Assembly: GCA_963665115.1 (NCBI GenBank)
Contig: OY762007.1
Coordinates: 5,696,001 to 5,760,000 of the forward strand
From: an uncultured Rivularia sp.
GTDB lineage: Bacteria; Cyanobacteriota; Cyanobacteriia; Cyanobacteriales; Nostocaceae
Direction: 5' to 3'
Length of the DNA stretch: 64,000 nt
Shown here: positions 7,612 to 22,315 of the stretch, one piece after another
Position numbering within the stretch: the first letter of the stretch is position 1
Layout of the letters: every line of letters begins with the position of its first letter
Notes under the pieces: model-generated
Databases searched by the model: none
Told to the model about the DNA's origin: nothing
The model's input: only the letters and a program-made list of their open reading frames with translations
Made by a program: the position numbers and the translations under genes

Positions 7612-7633
7612 TTTAGAATGATTATCATTGTCA
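7612..7633. promoter_or_regulatory. Zur/Fur-family binding site (overlapping 7-1-7 boxes)
   Basis: TTAGAATGATTATCATTGTCA; two overlapping 12/14 matches to TGATAATNATTATCA. Confidence 0.6.
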
Positions 7634-7669
7634 CTGGAACAAATATTTCTTCAGCATCAAGATATCGCA

Positions 7670-8617
7670 ATGACTATAAATACGGTTAATGCATCTTCTA
7701 ATCAAGTTGTTATAGCTTTGATGGGTAAAGGTGGAACGGGTAAGACTTTTACTTCACTGGGTTTAATCCAAAGTTTGAGAAAGTTGGATAAAGCTATGAT
7801 TGTAGCGGATGCAGATACTAATAGGTCACTTTCGCGCTATCTTACTGCTCATTATTTGGGATATGGGGAAGAGGAGCTAAAGCAACTTGCGCTGATGACT
7901 CAAGCTGAACAGGATTTTTATGAGTTTCAACAATTAGATTCCGAGCAAACCTACCGCGATTTTTACGGTACTCCATTCGATCGAGTTAAGAATTTTTCAG
8001 TTGAACCACCGGACTCTTTTACTCACAAGTACATAAAACCCCTTGACGACAAACTCGCGTTGATGTCGGTGGGAACTAGTGCTATGCGGATGGAAGAACT
8101 TTATTCTACTCGTTGTTCTCACGCAACATTAAATCCGTTAAAAGCTTGGTTGGCTTTATCTACAAACGGGAATGTTGTTCTCGACTGCGGTGGTGGTGAG
8201 GATTCTGGTAGATTCGGTTTACCTATTGGTGCGAATGTGGTGGTTGTAGTAGTGGAAGCGACTCCCGATGCGATCGCGATTTCCGAAGATATCCGAGCTA
8301 TCGATGAAGAATTGGGAATTCCCGTAGTTTATGTTTTAAATAAGTGCCTCAATCAGTTTCCAGAAGTTGAAGCTTTTGAAGCCGAACATCAAGATAAAAT
8401 TTTAGGTAAAATTCCTTTTATACCTACAATCTATGGGAAAAATCCTCTAGAAGTATTTAGTGAAATTGAAGATATATTTACACCAATGGTTGAGAAGATT
8501 CTTGCTCAAAAACTAAGTTCTCCCCAGGAAAGATGGGAAAGAGTAATAAGATGGCAAGAACGTTTACAGCAGCAACGAGAAACGAATAAAAGTCAACCCT
8601 TTAGTTTTATTTCTTAA
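7670..8617 (+). CDS. CooC/ParA-MinD-like P-loop ATPase
   Basis: Deviant Walker A GKGGTGKT, DAD, VVLDCG, VLNK; CSH where CooC has CxC. Confidence 0.75.
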   Translation: MTINTVNASSNQVVIALMGKGGTGKTFTSLGLIQSLRKLDKAMIVADADTNRSLSRYLTAHYLGYGEEELKQLALMTQAEQDFYEFQQLDSEQTYRDFYGTPFDRVKNFSVEPPDSFTHKYIKPLDDKLALMSVGTSAMRMEELYSTRCSHATLNPLKAWLALSTNGNVVLDCGGGEDSGRFGLPIGANVVVVVVEATPDAIAISEDIRAIDEELGIPVVYVLNKCLNQFPEVEAFEAEHQDKILGKIPFIPTIYGKNPLEVFSEIEDIFTPMVEKILAQKLSSPQERWERVIRWQERLQQQRETNKSQPFSFIS

Positions 8618-12524: not shown

Positions 12525-13635
12525 ATGAAGCGAGTTTGTATTATCTTAGGTACTCGTCCCGAAGCGATTAAACTTGCTCCGGTGATTAAAACTTTCCAAG
12601 CTTATGAAGGTTTGGAAACTCAGGTGATTTTAACTGGACAGCATCGCGAGATGGTTGAGCAGGTGATGGGATTGTTCAATTTAAAAGCCGATCGCGATTT
12701 GGAGATTATGCAGCCGAAACAATCTCTGAGCGATATCACTTGTCGTAGCTTGCGCGGGTTGCAGGAGTTATTTGAGGAAAGCGAACCAAGTTTAGTTTTG
12801 GTTCAGGGAGATACAACTACAGCTTTTGCAGCAGCTTTGGCAGCTTTTTATAAAAAAATTCCTATTGGTCATGTCGAAGCTGGATTAAGAACTGATAACA
12901 TATTTAATCCTTATCCAGAAGAAGCCAACCGACGATTAATTTCTCAAATTGCACAACTACATTTTGCACCGACACCTTTGGCTGAGGAAAATTTACAGCG
13001 TTTCTGGGGTATTAGGAAAAGTTCACATGACGGGTAACACCGTGATTGATGCGCTGTTGAATGTTGCGAAAAGCGAACCTCCCTGTAACGTACCGGGTTT
13101 GGAATGGCAAAATTATCGAGTTATTTTAGCTACAGTTCACCGCCGAGAGAATTGGGGCGAACCACTCGAAAGTATTGCCCAAAGCTTCTTACAGGTATTA
13201 GCTAAATTCCCAGATACAGCGTTATTGCTACCATTACACCGCAATCCTACGGTAAGAGAACCATTGCAGGCAATGTTAGGCAATCATCCCCGAATCTTCT
13301 TAACAGAACCCTTAGATTACGGTCAACTAGTCGGGGCAATAATGCGATCGCACTTATTACTCACAGATTCAGGTGGGTTACAAGAAGAAGCCCCTAGTTT
13401 AGGAAAACCAGTATTAGTACTCAGAGAAACAACAGAAAGACCGGAAGCAGTAAGCGCAGGTACGGCAAAGCTTGTAGGAACAGATACTCAAACAATAATA
13501 GCTAGTGCAGCACAACTATTAAGCAATCGGGCAGCCTATGAAACAATGGCAAACGCAATTAATCCCTTCGGAGATGGCAAGGCTTCCGAGAGGATTTTGC
13601 AAATTGTGCGAGGTTTCTTAGAAGTTAAAAATTAG
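12525..13635 (+). CDS. wecB: UDP-N-acetylglucosamine 2-epimerase, split by a +1 frameshift at TTT 13001-13003
   Basis: GTRPEAIK, TGQH, QGDT, HVEAGLRT, HRREN, DSGGLQEE, TERPE. Confidence 0.93.
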
Positions 13636-13639
13636 CATT

Positions 13640-13694
13640 AGGTTCGTAGTAAGGACTTTAGTCCTCAGAGCGCTAAAGCGCTTACTACAAACCT
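13640..13694. repeat. GTAG-type REP palindrome between convergent genes
   Basis: AGGTTCGTAGTAAG ... CTTACTACAAACCT; related unit nested at 20737-20791. Confidence 0.7.
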
Positions 13695-13697
13695 TGT

Positions 13698-16600
13698 TCA
13701 TTCTTCATCATCATCTTCTAAAGGCAGCTCGATGACAAACTCCGCTCCGTTTCCAGGAGAGGAAAGGCAATATAAATTACCACAATGTGTTTCGGTAACT
13801 ATTTGATGGCTAATTGATAATCCTAAACCCGTTCCTTTTCCTTCCGGTTTAGTGGTGAAAAATGCATTGAATAGCTTACTTCTGACTTCTTCTGGCATTC
13901 CAGGGCCGTTATCTGCAATACGAATGGTAACTTTGTCTTCGTCAGATGAAGTACGGATAGTAATAACGTTAGGATTTTTCTCAATCTCTGCGTAATTTTT
14001 GCCTTGGTTGGATTCGTCTAAAGCATCAATTGCATTTGCTAATAAATTCATAAACGCCTGGTTTAATTGACCGGAATAACACTCAACCAGAGGCAAATCT
14101 TCATACTTTTTGACAACTTCAATTGTAGGACGTTCGGCATTCGCTTTAAAACGATGTTGCAAAATCATCAAGGTTGTTTCAATGCCTTCATGGACGTTAA
14201 CCGGCTTTTTATCAGCGCTATCAGTACGCGAGAAATTCCGCAAAGACTGCATGATATCGCGAATTCTGTCAGTTCCTAATTCCATAGAAGTTATCATTTT
14301 TGGTAAGTCTTCTAGGAGGTAATCTAGATCGATATCTTCTTGGAAAATTTCAATTTCGTCCGGTGGAGAAGGTACGTTAGCCTGATATAAACTTAACAGT
14401 TCTAGTAAATCTTCGATATATTGATTGGCTATGGACAAGTTACCCGCAATAAAACCAACGGGATTATTAACTTCGTGAGCAACACCTGCTACCAATTGCC
14501 CCAAAGAAGAAATTTTTTCGGTTTGTACTAACTGCGCTTGAGTTTGCTGGAGCGTTTGTAAAGATTCCCGTAGCTGCTGTGACTTTTCTTGTTCCCCAGA
14601 GTAAAGACGAGCATTTTCGATTGCGATCGCAGCTTGTGAAGTGAGCAGTTTAAGAATTTCCAAGCGCGAGTTTGTAAATGCACCAGTAACTTGGTTGTTT
14701 TCCAGGTAAATAATTCCCGTAAACTTACCTTGGTAGAAAATGGGAGCGCACAAAATTGATTTTGGTTGTTCCCGGAGTATGTAGGAATCTTCTTTATAAA
14801 TTGCTTCTTTGCTTGCGTCGTTAAGTACCAAAGGTTGTTGAGTTCTGGCAACGTAGTGGATAACGCTTAAAGGGATATCTTTGCTGTCTTCTATAGGGGT
14901 TGATTGCAATACAACTAAGTCGTTATATTGGTCATTATCGATAGCTTCGATAAACAACTGCTCGTTTTTGAGCAAGATGAGACAACCCTTTTGAGCCGCA
15001 GCATTTTCGAGAATGATAGATAATAGCTTATCGAGGAGATTATCTAAAACGATTTCGCTGGTAATAGCTTCTGAAGCTTTCATTACCGTAGTTAAATCTA
15101 GAATACTATTACTACTATTACTATTATTAGTTGATGAGTTTAAAGCTCTTGAAGAACTACCAACAATCGTTTCGGTAATGTCTTGTTGTAATAGTGCGGT
15201 GGTTTCGCTACGAATAATTAAATTAGGGTAACGTTCTTCTAAATCTTTAACTTTAGCTAAAGCACCCCAGCGAACATAGCCGTAGTAAGCATCAGTCATG
15301 TAGGTTTTAGCAATCTTATCCTTACCCAAAACCAGATAAAACTGTGCCGCAAGTTCGTTACCCAATGCTTCCTCTTGGGTGTAGCCGTTTTCCTTCGCTC
15401 CGGCGATCGCGCGATCGTACAGATTCATTGCTTTAACTTTTTTGCCAAAGATCCGAGCTTTTTCGGCTTCCACTAAATCGTACTTGTGTTGGAAATTGCA
15501 GGCTGCATGATGCGCCCATTTCTTCATTTTCTTTTGATTTGCAGCGACTTGTTTGAGGTATTGCTTTTGTTCTGTGGATGTAACGTTTTTGTAATTCGCG
15601 AAGAGTGCGAGGGAGTAGTAGTAATTGTTGACGCAATACATTAAAAAGCCTGGATTGCTTTCTTGGTATTTTTCAGTTAGTTTAGCAGTTTGAATAGCTT
15701 CTCCAAAATTATTAAAAGAATAATTTAGAATGGTTTTACAGACATATATTGTACTTAACCAAGTTGAATTATTCCCTAATTCAAATATAATCTCTGCTTC
15801 ACTTAAATTTTCATAATCTAACGAAAATTTATTGAATGAATTTCCTTTTAAATTTAAGATAGCCTGTCTAATTGCGCTTAAAGTCCAAACCAAGACCGTT
15901 ATTTTTAACTTTTGTGTAAGTATTATATAATTATATATTTTACGATCGAGCGATTCTATATTTTCTCCACTAAAAAATGAGTTAATAGCTATTAGCCAAT
16001 TAATGTAGCTAGCAGATTCTATATCTCCTGTTTCTAATCCACTTTGCATTCCTTCAAGTGCCGGTGCAATCATTTGTTTAACAGGCTCTTTAAAATGCCA
16101 AATCATGGAATTGAACAGGTTATAAAGTTTAGATTTAAGAGATTTAGAATTAAATTTTTCTAGTACTAAAAGACCTAATTTACCAAATCTGTATCCTTCT
16201 TCAATTTCACCAAATTTATCACATAGCATTGCACCATAAATACAGTAACCATAAGTGCTAAATTCGGAGTTTCCATATTTAACAGATAAACGAACCATTG
16301 ATAATATAGTTAGTGGAAAGAGTAAAGATCCTGCCTGACTAGCGGCCGGATTAATTAGTATTAGAATTTGCATAGCCGCCAGTTTATAAGCGTCGGTCAT
16401 TCTAGGCAAATAGGCTAAATCTTCAATTCTTTTTCCAGCTAAAGTTAATTTAGTCTGTAGAACCGATACCAAAATATAATGTATTTTTGGTTCAGCTGGT
16501 AATGGTACATTAAGTAATTTTAAAACATGAACTCCTAATTCCAAAGCTTCTGACATCAGATTTTGAGCAATACTACACTGGATTTGAATTTTATATATTC

Positions 16601-19189
16601 TTACTTGATCCAGAATAGTATTAGCTTTTCGTAATGTAAGCGTTCCTAGCTTTTTTGATTTTTCAAAGTTACCTTGTAGATATTCTGCTTCTACTACCTC
16701 TACGTATATATTTAGTAGGAGCTCATAGTTCTCTTGCGAATTGCAATGTGTTAAAAGTTTCAACCCTATATTTAAATATTTTATAGCAGTTTCATAAGCT
16801 GTAGCAGTCTTGGCTTTCTTCCCAGCTATTAAATTAAGTTTTGCTAACTGATCTTTTTCAGATTGTTCAGTTAATAAATCAACACCAAAGTTTAATTGAT
16901 TAACAACATCTAAGATATTTTCAGAAAATAATTCTGGTGGCGTTTGCTTTAGCAGTAACTGACCAATTTTAAGGTGAGTTGCTTGTTTATCACATTCGGG
17001 AATAAATGAATACGCTGCTTGCTGCACGCGGTCATGTAAAAATCTATAACCAACTTTAGCAATATTTGATTTTAAATTTATTATAGAAAATTGTTGATAA
17101 CTTGTATCTATATCACTGTCTTCTAAATTTTCATCAAATACTAAAGGAATCTTGTAAGCTTCACTCAAAGGTAGAATTAGCCCAGCTTGCAAGGCTGCAT
17201 CTAATTCTTTAGCAGTACTTACCGAAAATTTTTCATTTACAATTGACAGCACATCAAGTGTAAATTTATCTCCAATACAAGCGGCGAGTTGCAATACTCG
17301 TTGTGTAGATTCTGGTAGCTTCTTAATCCGATTGGCAACTAGCTCTACTACGCTTTGGTCGGTGATACCTATCGCTTGAATTTCTTCAATATCCCACTTC
17401 CACATTCCTTGATTTTTTTCTTTATTTATTATGGAAGAAAAGGGAGTAAAATCGAATTCTAAAAGGTTTTCTTGGTAAAGTGTTTGCAGTAATTGACTTA
17501 TAAAAAAGGGATTACTACCAGTTTTATTACAGATTAGTTCGGCTAGAGTGTTGACTCGTTCTGTACTATCATTTAAAGTTTCGGCAACCAACTGAGTCAC
17601 ATCTGCAATCTCAAGTGGTTGTAAAACTATATTATGAACAATGGCGTTATTTTTCTCTATTTCGTCTAAGGTTTGAATTAAAGCATGAGTTGAACTAACT
17701 TCATTATCGCGGTAAGCCCCAATCAACAGCAAATATTTTGTTTCGGGATCGGCAGCTAATATTTGCATTAAATTTAATGTCGCAGAATCCGCCCACTGTA
17801 AGTCATCAAGAAAGATAACTAAGGGATGTTCTTTTTGAGTAAAGATATTGATAAACTCAGTGAAAACGCGATTGAAACGATTTTGCGCCTCTGTTCCACC
17901 CAGTTCGGGTACTTCTGGTTGTTTCCCGATGATGAGTTCCACTTCTGGAATTACATCGATAATTACTTGTCCGTTTCCACCAACAGCAGTTAATATTTTG
18001 TTGTGCCATTGTTCTAGCTGAGCGCTACTTTCTGTAAGTAATTGCTGCATCAAGCTACTTAAAGCCTGAATTAATGAAGCGTAAGGAATATTGCGCTTGA
18101 ATTGGTCAAATTTACCGCTGATAAAGTAACCACGCTTTTGAGTGATGGGTTTATTAACTTCATAAACTACGGATGATTTACCAATTCCTGAATAGCCAGA
18201 AACTAGCATCAGTTCGCGGCTTCCTTTGCTGACTCTTTCAAAAGAATCTAGAATTTGATTGACCTGAGTTTCCCTACCGTAAAGCTTTTGGGGAATGAGT
18301 AACTGACTTAATATATCTAATCGTCCCCCGGTTGAAACTCGATAATTGTTCCGGTGATTTCTAACTGTTCGCGACATAGCTCTAAATCGGCTAAAAGTCC
18401 TTTAGCGGTTTGATAGCGATCTTCAGCGTTTTTCGCCATCAACTTCACTACTACATTGGCGATCGCGTTAGGAACTTCTGGATTTAATTCTTGAATTTCA
18501 ACGGGTTGCTTGGCAATATGACAGTGAATCAACTCTAAAGGATCGTTACTTTGAAAAGGTAATCTCCCGGTAAGCACTTCATAAAAAGTTATGCCCAGTG
18601 AATAAAAATCGCTGCGATAGTCAAGAGCGCGATTCATTCTCCCGGTTTGTTCTGGGGACATATATGTTAATGTCCCTTCAAGTTGATTGGGGTTAGTTAA
18701 TTGCAGATTTTCATTACTGAGTCTTGAAGCGATACTAAAGTCAGTAAGCTTAACTTCTCCTGTTTTAGGATTGACAATGATATTATCTGCTTTGATATCT
18801 TTATGAATAATTTTATGAGAATGCAGCGATACCAAAGCTTTTGCTAATTGCACTGCAATACTTAAAAATTCTATAAATTCTAATTTACGGTTAAAAAGTA
18901 CTTGCTTAAGAGATTGTCCGCCAAAGTCCTCTAATACCAGCACCAAGCGATTTTGGTCGGTTTCAAGCCTTAATATCTTGACAACACCTTCTAAATCAAG
19001 GTTTTCAGTAACTTTATATTCGTGTTTGAGTCGTGTAATCGCATCCAAAGCAGGATAATCATCTTTAAGAATTTTAAGAATGACTTTTTGCTGGTTTAGC
19101 TGCGATGTACCCCGATAAATAATAGTGTTGATTCCCTCGTATATGACTTCCGTAATGTCATAACCGGGAACCAAGGTAGATGTGAGCAT
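13698..19189 (-). CDS. Multi-kinase (Ser/Thr kinase-AAA ATPase-helical-GAF-His kinase, HstK type), frameshifted at C5 tract 18325-18329
   Basis: HKDIK, DFSIAS, YMSPEQTGR; GYSGIGKS, LDDLQW; GAF; AHEVNNP, NAIDA, DNGPG, GTGLGL. Confidence 0.9.
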
Positions 19190-19388
19190 TACACAATCCT
19201 TCCTAGAAGAGTATAAATGTGTTCGTATATTTAGGGTTCCCCAATATTCAGCTTTTTAAACATCGATAGAAGGAATTTTGTTGAAAGTTTAAAATATATT
19301 GTTAGCAACAGCAAAATATTGATATGTACACTTAACAAATAATGCCCTCAGACTATAAGTCTGGGGCTAGGAAATCAAAGTATACCGA

Positions 19389-20135
19389 TTAAGCAAGTAT
19401 CAAAGATTTTTTTTCGGGATTTGTTTCTATATAAACATTTTCTATCGAGTTAGTTTGTGCATAAACCATTAGTTCATTAAAACATTCAGAAAAAGCTGAA
19501 AATACTGTATTGACTATCTCAAAAGCTGTTTCTTTTTGTTTTGGTGTTAGTTCTAAATCATCAATGAATAAATGTGTACTGCCAGTAATGATTGCATGAC
19601 TCTTTTCGGCTTCTACATGATGATTGTTTAAATACAAATAATCTCTAGAAGTAATTTGTTCAAGCTCTTGAGCAACTATAGCTGTTAATGGTAAACCTAT
19701 ATTTGATGTTCCTTCTATAGCTTCAATAATTATTAGTCTCAAAATAGGATCTTGAAAGGAACTACATAAAGAAAATAGTTGATATGATAGTTGACGTGTT
19801 TTTTGTGTTGATTCACTCCAGAAAAAATTTATTGTATCAATAAAATTGAGTCTATGATTAAAATCAAGCTTTTCAATGTCTTCCAAAAACCATATCCAAT
19901 GATAATCTTCTTCGTAAGTATGCTTATTGATTATTTTTTGAATCGGATTATCGCTAGGCTCTTGACGGAGAACGTATTTATTCAATTCTGATAAACTCAT
20001 TGTGACATGAGTAAAACAAGGTACCCAAATTAGTCTTTGTCTTGGATCTATACTCTTATCTAGTAAATATTCAAAAAACGGTAAATTCGCAAATTCTTGC
20101 TTTTTCTGTTCAATCAGTTCTAAAACTTCTTTCAT
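19389..20135 (-). CDS. Heme-oxygenase-like diiron oxidase (HDO), AetD-like
   Basis: All-helical 248 aa with HTYEEDYHW, EAIE, HHVEAEKSH; colinear with AetD as I recall it. Confidence 0.75.
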   Translation of the reverse strand: MKEVLELIEQKKQEFANLPFFEYLLDKSIDPRQRLIWVPCFTHVTMSLSELNKYVLRQEPSDNPIQKIINKHTYEEDYHWIWFLEDIEKLDFNHRLNFIDTINFFWSESTQKTRQLSYQLFSLCSSFQDPILRLIIIEAIEGTSNIGLPLTAIVAQELEQITSRDYLYLNNHHVEAEKSHAIITGSTHLFIDDLELTPKQKETAFEIVNTVFSAFSECFNELMVYAQTNSIENVYIETNPEKKSLILA

Positions 20136-20643
20136 TTTAATTCTCTAAGGTCAAGGTACAATCTTCTTTGATTAAAGATGGTATTTGCACTAATCCCTGA
20201 CACTATCTTCTAATAACTGCAATATTCACCTAAAAAATGTGAATATTAAATTATTAAAGGATTCCACAATGAGAACTTTTAAAACAACAGTACCTAACAT
20301 CAACTAACTTTTACGAAACTACTGCACTAAACAGTATTCAGTTTTAGCAGTCTTGTTTTAGCTTTCTAACTAATTACTAAGTGTGGCAGAATATTTTTGA
20401 AATGGGTAGGGGTTTAGAGTAATCTTTATTAAAAGAAAAATAATTAGAATAAATACGGACAGCTCAATCAGCTATTAACTTAGATAATATGGTTTAATTC
20501 AGATCAATTTCAGAGAATATACTGAAGGTTTACTATTTCTCTACCAAAAATAATTAATTTTTTAATTAACCGTTATCAATTGTTAGATAGATCCCACATC
20601 TGATTTTAGATTCTGGATTTAGGTGTGTTGTCAAAGGATTAAA

Positions 20644-20881
20644 GCCCTCACCCTCGAAGGGTAGGGCTACAATTACAAAGCCCACCTGCGTGGGCTAATA
20701 TCACATCCGCCGCCATTGCTTGTAAATGAGAAGAGATTTGTAGTTGCGCTTTAGCGCTTCTTATAGGAGGCGAAGACGGCGCAACTACGAACCTTTTTAA
20801 ACTTGATATAAGAAGCCTAATTTTTCCTAACCCGCGCAGGCGGGCTTCGTTTCTGTAGCCCCACCCTTCGAGGGTGAGGGC
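20644..20881. repeat. Composite REP element with 28-bp terminal IR and nested second REP
   Basis: GCCCTCACCCTCGAAGGGTAGGGCTACA versus its inverse, 27/28 identical; inner unit 20737-20791. Confidence 0.8.
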
Positions 20882-20890
20882 GATTATCTA

Positions 20891-22315
20891 TCAAGACTTC
20901 ACAGCCACATCTTTATCTTTTTCTTTTTTCTCTTCTTCTTCCGGTAAACCTAACATCGAACGATACAAACTTACATACTTCTTAGCTGAAAGCTCCCAAC
21001 TGAAATTCTGATTCATACCTCGTTGCTGCAATTCTTGCCATTGCGGTTTGAAGCGGAAGCCCTCCCATGCTCGTACCATGCAGGTATATTGGTCTAACGC
21101 TTCGTAACGGTCGAAACAATAACCCGTACCTGCGTTATTCGTTGGATCGTGATGGGATACTGTATCTACCAATCCCCCTGTACGGCGTACAATCGGCACA
21201 CAACCGTAACGCATCGCTAGCATTTGACTGATACCGCAGGGTTCAAAACGACTGGGCATTAAGAATGCATCGCTACCAGCGTAAATGCGACGAGCTAAAG
21301 CATCGTTATATAGTATGTAGCTTGCCATTCTTCCGGGAAAACGAGATGCCATTTGCCACAGTTGGGTTTCGTAATTTCTGTCTCCAGTTCCTAATACTAT
21401 GAATTGAGCATCTGTATAGGATAAAAATTTATCAAGAACCTGCAACATTAAATCAATGCCTTTCTGTTCTACTAAACGGGATACCATCCCAATTAAAAAG
21501 GCTTTGCTATTAACTTCTAATCCCAATTCTTCCTGTAAAGCGATTTTATTCGGCTTGCGTTTCTCTAAACTTTTACTAGTGAATTTCTGTTCAATATACT
21601 TATCTGTTTCTGGGTTGTAAACTTCGGTATCTATACCATTAACAATACCCGATAATTTACCGCTAATAAATGACAGCAACCCCTCCAAGGTTTCGCCATA
21701 ATCAGCCGTCTTAATTTGGTCGGCATAAGTTGGAGAAACCGTAGTTACTTTATCGGCAAACTGTACCGCAGCCGCCATCGTGTTGTGTCCCTGCATATAC
21801 CACGGACACCAGGTAATTTTCTCTAAATACCAGCGCCAAGGACCTTGATAAGCTAAGTTGTGAATCGTAAATACGGTACTAATGTCGGGAGTTTGACTCA
21901 GCCACACCGGAAGCATCCCCGTGTGCCAATCGTGACAGTGAACTATCTCCGGTTTCCAGTAATTCCAGCAAAACTCGGCAGCACCGTTAGCAAAGAAAGT
22001 GAAGCGCCAATCTTCATCCTCGCCGCCATAAACTTTGCGCGGGTCAAAAGCCGGATGTCCAAATAAATACAGTGGAACATCAGTACTGGGAAGCACGGAT
22101 TCGTAAACCGCAAAATCATTGAACATGGCAGAACCCTTCCAAACAGGTTCTTCAGGAATTTCCATCTTATCCGGCAAAAAACCGTAATAAGGCATGAAAA
22201 TTCGGACATCATGCCCCATTTTCCGCAAAATCTTCGGCAATGCACCTACAACATCACCCATTCCGCCAACTTTCGCCACCGGAGCCGCTTCCGCCGCCAC
22301 AAATAGAATCCGCAT
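20891..22315 (-). CDS. glgA: Glycogen synthase
   Basis: [32 protein letters not shown]. Confidence 0.97.

Follow-up and report, generated by a model that had tools for sequence, protein, structure and literature searches.

A diiron oxidase and a dual kinase as a candidate signal synthase and receptor in a Rivularia genome

Introduction

Does a small oxidase gene encode the synthase of a signal that the kinase encoded behind it receives? The question arises from a gene pair on the minus strand of a 64,000-nt stretch of Rivularia sp. DNA (contig OY762007.1; "the window" hereafter), in which an open reading frame (ORF) of 248 amino acids (aa) lies 199 nt upstream of, and in the same orientation as, the start of a Ser/Thr and histidine dual kinase at 19189. 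A sequence-only reading of the window had given this spacing, correctly, as about 200 nt, and had proposed that the enzyme makes a diffusible signal read by the kinase. The proposal gains strong comparative support from the linkage of the two genes, a sensor segment matched to the oxidase allele at three loci, and the exchange of synthases in the slot beside the kinase, although the logic is nearer to that of ComQXP than to LuxI/LuxR, with which it had been compared. These observations, together with the enzyme family, fold and iron ligands and the kinase architecture, lead us to favor, at somewhat better than even probability, a matched signal synthase and receptor with the oxidase product as the signal. 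Each part belongs to a known family, and our literature searches turned up no earlier description of the pairing or of the allele matching.

Family, fold, and pocket of the oxidase

The match to AetD made in the sequence-only reading is borne out by phmmer (E = 8e-46) and by the structure model (pLDDT 92; Foldseek TM score 0.87 to AetD, root-mean-square deviation 1.4–1.9 A; next non-AetD match E = 2e-3), which has a predicted seven-helix heme-oxygenase-like fold. Pfam and NCBIfam assign no family to the protein. The motifs previously listed (H72xxE75xxxH79, E141, and H173xxxE177xxH180) are all present, but H72 and E75 of the first, while conserved, lie outside the iron-ligand set. By AetD numbering the ligands are E76, H79, E141, H173, E177, and H180, which keeps the 3-His/3-carboxylate set of AetD (D76, H79, E140, H172, E176, H179; the six are named in PMC11611611). 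The D76 to E replacement recurs in 10 of 88 aligned homologues, and all six ligands are retained in 81 of the 88.

With AetD (PMC11611611, PMC10654658) the window oxidase has in common the fold, the ligand set, and Y167 (here Y168), at an identity of 34–36%; at 44% identity, SktA of the skt cluster in Nostoc punctiforme NIES-2108 (PMC11869266) is by sequence the closest characterized enzyme, rather than AetD or BesC, the two enzymes previously named. SktA converts tryptophan to skatole, cyanide, and bicarbonate (PMC11869266), and T142 and F214 separate it from AetD (PMC13108848). The window oxidase shares with SktA the family, the six ligand positions, and equivalents of Y167, T142, and F214, the last two as T143 and F215, both of them consensus residues of the family as well (82 and 83 of 88 in the alignment). 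It departs from SktA by F44 to V, M146 to G, A41 to F, T139 to I, and D76 to E. The indole clamp of AetD, F44/I146 (PMC10654658), is changed to V44 and G147 with F41 gained; AetD-proper residues M139, A142, S214, and F44/I146 are absent (I140, T143, F215, V44, and G147 in the window), as is the SktA-proper indole pocket F44, T139, and M146 (V44, I140, and G147). Since the pocket is unlike both, tryptophan is not assured as the substrate; by analogy with SktA, the most plausible reaction is cleavage of some aromatic amino acid at its side chain. Neither aet-type cluster neighbors nor sktB/sktC neighbors occur at the window locus.

Oxidases fused to a Pyr_redox_3 flavoprotein (830–925 aa) occur at L074:8001-10679, L079, L096, and L098 (labels L### denote individual sampled loci). 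This flavoprotein, which has no close solved relative, is also the commonest separate partner of the oxidase.

Architecture of the dual kinase

The domain order reported earlier, Ser/Thr kinase (STK), AAA, helical region, GAF, and His kinase, is correct, but it is spread over two ORFs of 290 and 1559 aa, a split that had gone unnoticed. Over the two ORFs we find the N-terminal STK, GAF, C-terminal His kinase, KD, and DFS that define cbSTKIII kinases. The AAA_16 match is strong (E = 6e-46), and a TPR_CHK1 match is below the cut-off (E = 3e-4). In its model (pLDDT 90), the helical region forms a TPR-like superhelix with about 30 helices; its fold matches are generic (TPR, Z up to 19.9), the STAND TPR sensor 6mfv being among them at Z = 12.4, a range common for helical repeats, and the domain has no sequence match in the PDB. 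An AAA_16 ATPase followed by a TPR-like superhelix is the layout of STAND proteins. In MalT, repeats of this kind bind the inducer.

The G-run that splits the frame has two extra bases in the window and in L031 and one in L131; in L267, which has the same context, its length is normal. All three split cases are single-contig assemblies, 5 of 45 tested genes of the same genome have frame changes, and 3 of 4 sequencing runs of relatives yield contigs without the two extra bases. The epimerase gene downstream, intact in relatives, is split here by a single inserted base, another sign of indel errors in this assembly. Most orthologues have an intact kinase frame. The split is likely an assembly error, and the living strain probably has a whole kinase.

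Linkage of oxidase and kinase

Oxidase matches were obtained for 237 of 360 host-family genomes and for 58 of 401 genomes of the class, and the Rivularia genome itself has three full copies. The sample comprised 40 places in the family (taken from the top score downward among the 150 that were listed out of 398 matches), 40 of the 78 places listed for the class, 35 loci from a pattern scan, and the three own copies; five duplicates were dropped, leaving 113 loci. A locus was counted as linked when a dual-kinase AAA or helical match lay within about 8 kb, and a looser criterion accepting any His kinase was discarded. The neighborhood survey that the sequence-only reading had suggested comes out in its favor: 68 of the 113 homologous loci are linked, as are 61 of the 91 with full flanks (29/34, 16/35, and 18/23 by set), against an own-genome baseline of 1.8%, in a sample that leans toward close relatives and in which kin are not independent. 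The kinase is the first or second ORF in 47 of the 68 linked loci, and the pairing is found in four orientations and with several kinase clades. The pairing is family-wide.

The characterized enzyme is among the linked cases. L119 encodes SktA, identical to the sequence in the supplement of the skt cluster paper, followed by a halogenase, a monooxygenase, and then a convergent 1863-aa dual kinase. The word "kinase" is absent from the accessible text and supplement of that paper (PMC11869266) and has no occurrence in the SktA papers; no literature linking AetD/SktA homologues to kinases was found in a search that left subscription journals mostly outside. The L119 dual kinase lies at approximately 13100-18693, with a 1952-aa alpha-2-macroglobulin gene upstream.

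Several observations touch the two families separately. Microcoleus-like genomes carry a kinase-less oxidase clade (L103, L134-L142), in which the L103 protein, with changed iron-ligand residues, may be inactive. Six dual kinases form a tandem array at L147-L148 (G489:C1:6933129-6973128). A 36-codon remnant of a fourth own-genome oxidase copy lies at G000:C1:580392-580499 beside an AraC-sized gene, and the relatives L283 and L288 have a full oxidase, that of L283 next to a receiver-AraC regulator.

Allele matching at the window locus

We compared the window locus with its counterparts at 16 loci in all (15 genus genomes and one metagenome contig), each with oxidase, kinase, and the flanking gene that we take, from its sequence, to be glgA on one contig; L048, L277, L129, L143, L188, L271, L274, and L279 (one gene missing), L268 and L275 (short), duplicates, and other genera were excluded. 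Near-identical hosts, whose flanking genes agree at 97–99%, carry oxidases only 43–45% identical; oxidase alleles differ in 9 of 14 close-host pairs, and oxidase and GlgA distances are uncorrelated (r = 0.05).

One stretch of the kinase, residues 781-1200 within the helical region ("the segment"), covaries with the oxidase (partial rank r = 0.42, P = 0.001; peak window rho = 0.79) and not significantly with GlgA (0.19, P = 0.086), whereas AAA, GAF, and the His kinase (HK) follow GlgA (0.61, 0.82, and 0.85) and not the oxidase (0.02, -0.16, and -0.12). Segment identity is 77–96% in all 15 same-allele pairs. The other 105 pairs average 61%, and the 4 among them that reach 75% all involve L186; in AAA, GAF-HK, and GlgA identity the two kinds of pairs do not differ. 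Tree congruence, a check proposed with the original reading, is seen as well: each of the four multi-member oxidase groups corresponds to a supported clade of the segment tree, and L186 is sister to one of these clades. Allele-diagnostic kinase columns fall inside the segment in 12 of 12 cases and outside it in none of 1396 columns, and the oxidase has 24 such columns, including the known pocket positions 41, 44, and 147.

Synonymous sites of STK and AAA, which lie between the two variable blocks, follow glgA, so the pattern is not that of one contiguous transferred block. Between L031 and L267, for example, synonymous distance is 0.07 in glgA, 0.06 in STK, 0.39 in the segment, and 0.10 after it. 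At L279, from a genome without an oxidase match, the kinase lacks residues 1-169 and 755-1357. GAF as the allele-specific sensor was ruled out, as it follows the host here and at a second locus.

Other loci and genera

At the second locus of the genus, behind a gene that is presumably ndhB, the kinase is convergent and of another clade. With the same boundaries, the segment again follows the oxidase across 10 full loci (r = 0.46, P = 0.013; its second half 0.50, P = 0.012), while STK, AAA, GAF, and HK follow the host; the stretches bordering the segment (641-780 and 1201-1330) also show 0.37. Extended to 15 loci, the 18 same-allele pairs average 73% against 44% otherwise.

The third locus has a PAS-PAS-PAS-PAS-GAF-His kinase preceding either one oxidase or a methyltransferase and two oxidases. 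The own copy of this kinase follows close hosts over most of residues 1-360; at residues 421-600, the fourth PAS, it is 90–98% identical to the other single-oxidase allele and 24–65% to closer hosts with another cassette; this is a single contrast, for which a contiguous block is a possible explanation. The own-genome oxidase behind the four-PAS kinase is L313 (G000:C1:607571-612216). The tandem oxidases, found in nine relatives, are about 50% identical to each other, most of them with an O-methyltransferase-sized gene.

Exchange of synthases beside the kinase

The description of the oxidase as an orphan fits the window allele, where the window ORFs and a domain scan confirm that no halogenase or other tailoring or biosynthetic gene adjoins the pair, but it does not extend to relatives, which insert such genes at the same place: Trp halogenases, FMO-like and Pyr_redox_3 flavoenzymes, O-methyltransferases, P450s, hydrolases, and cytokinin-dehydrogenase-like oxidases. 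Three oxidases are fused to a Pyr_redox_3 protein by Pfam.

The synthase itself is also exchanged. In one kinase clade (support 1.00), L282, L280, and L185 have a prenyltransferase and the oxidase, and L281 has a prenyltransferase and a tryptophanase-family lyase (666 bits, cut-off 285; tyrosine phenol-lyase is also possible). Another clade (support 1.00) has 51 sampled kinases. An oxidase is linked to 49 of them, mostly through ascertainment; the only two that came from kinase-first sampling face a terpene synthase and a P450, a combination that with a hybrid kinase forms a published cluster (PMC4558948, PMC4390852). Unrelated enzymes releasing small hydrophobic molecules occupy one slot, which favors a small-molecule ligand over protein contact.

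The full cassette at L281:12611-16839, facing a dual kinase, consists of the prenyltransferase, the tryptophanase-family lyase, and a cytokinin-dehydrogenase-like oxidase; it is likely a prenyl-indole cassette. At L146:3689-6856 an adenylation-reductase protein lies directly upstream of a dual kinase related to that of the window, a possible synthase-sensor pair.

Proposed mechanism and alternatives

We propose that the oxidase, in the manner of SktA, would use O2 and Fe(II) to cleave an aromatic amino acid at its side chain, releasing a small hydrophobic molecule; that the TPR-like segment of the kinase, which covaries with the oxidase allele, would bind this molecule; and that the bound segment would switch the ATPase and kinase outputs. 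If the product acts between cells, alleles would be chemical dialects, old polymorphisms that are kept while recombination homogenizes the conserved domains. A wider reading, to which we give somewhat less than even probability, is that filamentous cyanobacteria have a widespread, undescribed family of such dialects, in which a matched TPR segment of a dual kinase or a matched PAS domain reads the product of interchangeable cassettes. These would combine a diiron oxidase, tryptophanase, or terpene synthase with halogenase, prenyl-, methyl-, or oxygenase tailoring to make small volatile indoles, phenols, or terpenes; the published skatole and sesquiterpene clusters would both belong to this family, and in cbSTKIII kinases the ligand pocket would be the helical segment.

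Several results weigh against the synthase-receptor proposal. No such kinase is nearby in 30 of the 91 fully flanked homologues, and an oxidase is found in only 1 of 40 kinase-centered control regions, which means that most dual kinases are not partners. At the window locus the correlation drops to r = 0.28 (P = 0.073) when the largest allele group is removed, the segment boundaries were chosen after a sliding-window look at six alleles, and the permutation P-values ignore relatedness, with only about four multi-member allele groups. Matching also has exceptions: L186 joins a group-2 segment to an unrelated oxidase, and at the second locus L293 and L286 have oxidases 83% identical and second halves of the segment 51% identical. 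Across genera, the segment-oxidase partial correlation over 38 convergent-clade loci is -0.06 (P = 0.79), and other kinase domains are weakly positive (0.17–0.19); segment identity there is about 50%, and saturation is a possible reason for the missing correlation. Moreover, the folds closest to the segment are TPR solenoids that bind proteins or peptides, this assembly splits the kinase, and no response regulator adjoins the pair among the window ORFs and domain-scan matches. In L186, a C-methyltransferase-like gene and an aminotransferase gene lie between oxidase and kinase (L186:4692-6824); presumably they resemble beta-methyl amino acid pathways, and they could alter the L186 product.

The main rival is direct contact between enzyme and kinase, in which the TPR-like segment binds the oxidase protein itself, the oxidase is a trigger enzyme sensing O2, iron, or amino acids, and matched alleles reflect a coevolving interface. 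Enzymes modulate the STAND activator MalT, a model for such contact. The peptide- or protein-binding character of the closest TPR superhelices suits this account, as do oxidase alleles that differ throughout (43–50% identity) and the many allele-diagnostic oxidase columns, among the 24, that lie outside known pocket positions. We nevertheless regard it as unlikely: unrelated folds (the tryptophanase-family lyase, the terpene synthase with P450) occupy the same slot beside related kinases, the tracking part at the third locus is a PAS domain, small-molecule tailoring enzymes come and go with the oxidase, and the three known pocket positions are allele-diagnostic.

The same ligand-matched covariation is predicted if the product, an indole or phenol derivative with cyanide, is a defensive or allelopathic metabolite and the kinase detects it, or a precursor of it, within the cell as a means of feedback or self-protection rather than of communication. 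SktA does release skatole and cyanide, and natural-product clusters typically contain partners of the kinds seen here (halogenase, monooxygenase, methyltransferase, and prenyltransferase). Many alleles, however, are a bare oxidase without an adjacent transporter or resistance gene, that of the window included. Dialects are also the better fit for genomes with several cassettes in parallel, each having a sensor of its own, and for the many alleles found at one fixed site; a defensive role thus appears improbable to us. We think very unlikely, finally, a hitchhiking account in which oxidase and kinase are one recombining hot-spot block, the helical segment is merely fast-evolving, and the kinase here is a pseudogene. 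Nonindependent kin, the missing covariation across genera, oxidase-less dual kinases that also adjoin the epimerase gene in other genera, multi-copy repeats bordering the genes, and the split kinase in three assemblies all speak for it, but it is already weakened by the discontinuity of the block in the L031-L267 synonymous distances, by the recurrence of the pattern in a convergent layout with other domains in between, and by a G-run (+2, +2, +1) altered in three single-contig assemblies and normal in L267, together with frame changes in 5 of 45 tested own-genome genes.

If the synthase-receptor proposal is true, a large enzyme family known from two chemistry papers would gain a biological role, candidate ligands and a sensor domain would be named for cyanobacterial dual kinases, and filament-forming cyanobacteria would have a strain-specific signaling system. 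The idea is directly testable, as the SktA product is known, its neighboring kinase is identified, and natural allele pairs are built-in cognate and noncognate controls.

Comparison with known systems

The skt cluster likewise has a dual kinase directly behind it; at the window locus there is no halogenase or monooxygenase beside the oxidase, and the kinase is co-oriented and of another clade. The window kinase resembles cbSTKIII kinases (HstK/Alr2258, Pkn40/41; PMC2176072) in STK, GAF, and His kinase, the KD-type loop, and DFS. In its accessible portions the cbSTKIII survey (PMC2176072) names no ligand, reports only nitrogen- and iron-dependent expression, and suggests GAF/PAS as possible sensors; here, by contrast, it is the helical segment that tracks the enzyme, with GAF following the host. 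The sesquiterpene synthase-P450-hybrid two-component cluster of Nostoc and Fischerella (PMC4558948, citing Agger 2008) also pairs a hybrid kinase with a neighboring small-molecule synthase cassette whose tailoring gene is exchangeable, and two cassettes of this type sit on kinases nested among oxidase-linked ones; it differs in its terpene chemistry.

The ComQXPA pherotypes of Bacillus (PMC4408185) similarly join polymorphic genes for signal production to a cognate His kinase; the locus is fixed, and its polymorphism is uncoupled from that of housekeeping genes. The window pair differs from them in having no peptide signal, membrane receptor, or adjacent response regulator, and in having two variable blocks separated by conserved domains. 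In the window pair, producer and sensor part are co-polymorphic and uncoupled from host genes and the transmitter is conserved, a pattern not seen across genera. In ComP only the sensor part is known to vary. By analogy, the pair would work like a ComQXP pherotype system, yet is not a member. Membership in LuxI/LuxR was rejected: the enzyme is a heme-oxygenase-like diiron oxidase, the partner is a kinase, and Pfam gives no match to an acyl-homoserine-lactone synthase or a LuxR transcription factor.

Locus layout

The minus-strand genes of the pair and its flanks, and the epimerase gene that faces them, are listed in Table 1. No terminator-like site was found between oxidase and kinase (a weak test), and a promoter scan was at chance level (9 vs. 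7.1 ± 2.4).

Table 1 Features of the oxidase-kinase locus (window positions)
Feature	Position	Strand	Remarks
UDP-GlcNAc 2-epimerase gene	12525..13635	+	Downstream flank; split by 1-base insertion
Long kinase ORF, 1559 aa	13698..18377	-	AAA_16, helical region, GAF, His-kinase domains
HisKA and HATPase domains	13716..14504	-	H-box and G2 box intact; track host lineage
GAF domain	14619..15047	-	Tracks host lineage, not oxidase allele
Hypervariable TPR-like helical segment	15588..16847	-	Long-ORF aa 511-930; peak 15648-15887; tracks oxidase allele; predicted sensor
AAA_16 (STAND-type) ATPase domain	17721..18287	-	Walker A and B intact; tracks host lineage
N-terminal kinase ORF, 290 aa	18317..19189	-	Ser/Thr kinase domain of cbSTKIII dual kinase; HKDI and DFS motifs
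5-G run	18325..18329	-	Splits kinase frame; 2 bases longer than in intact orthologues; likely assembly indel
Diiron oxidase gene, 248 aa	19389..20135	-	AetD/SktA-family, heme-oxygenase-like; by phmmer, structure model, ligand alignment
Terminator-like hairpin	20679-20696		Behind glgA
Glycogen synthase gene glgA (presumed)	20891..22315	-	Upstream flank; host marker in comparisons

Multi-copy intergenic repeats border the pair at 20637-20888, 19337-19380, and 13640-13695; they comprise a 61-nt inverted repeat with about 100 genome copies and other elements with about 10 and about 130. Elsewhere in the window, at 7628-8617, a 329-aa P-loop protein of the CbiA/MinD family is encoded convergently with topA.

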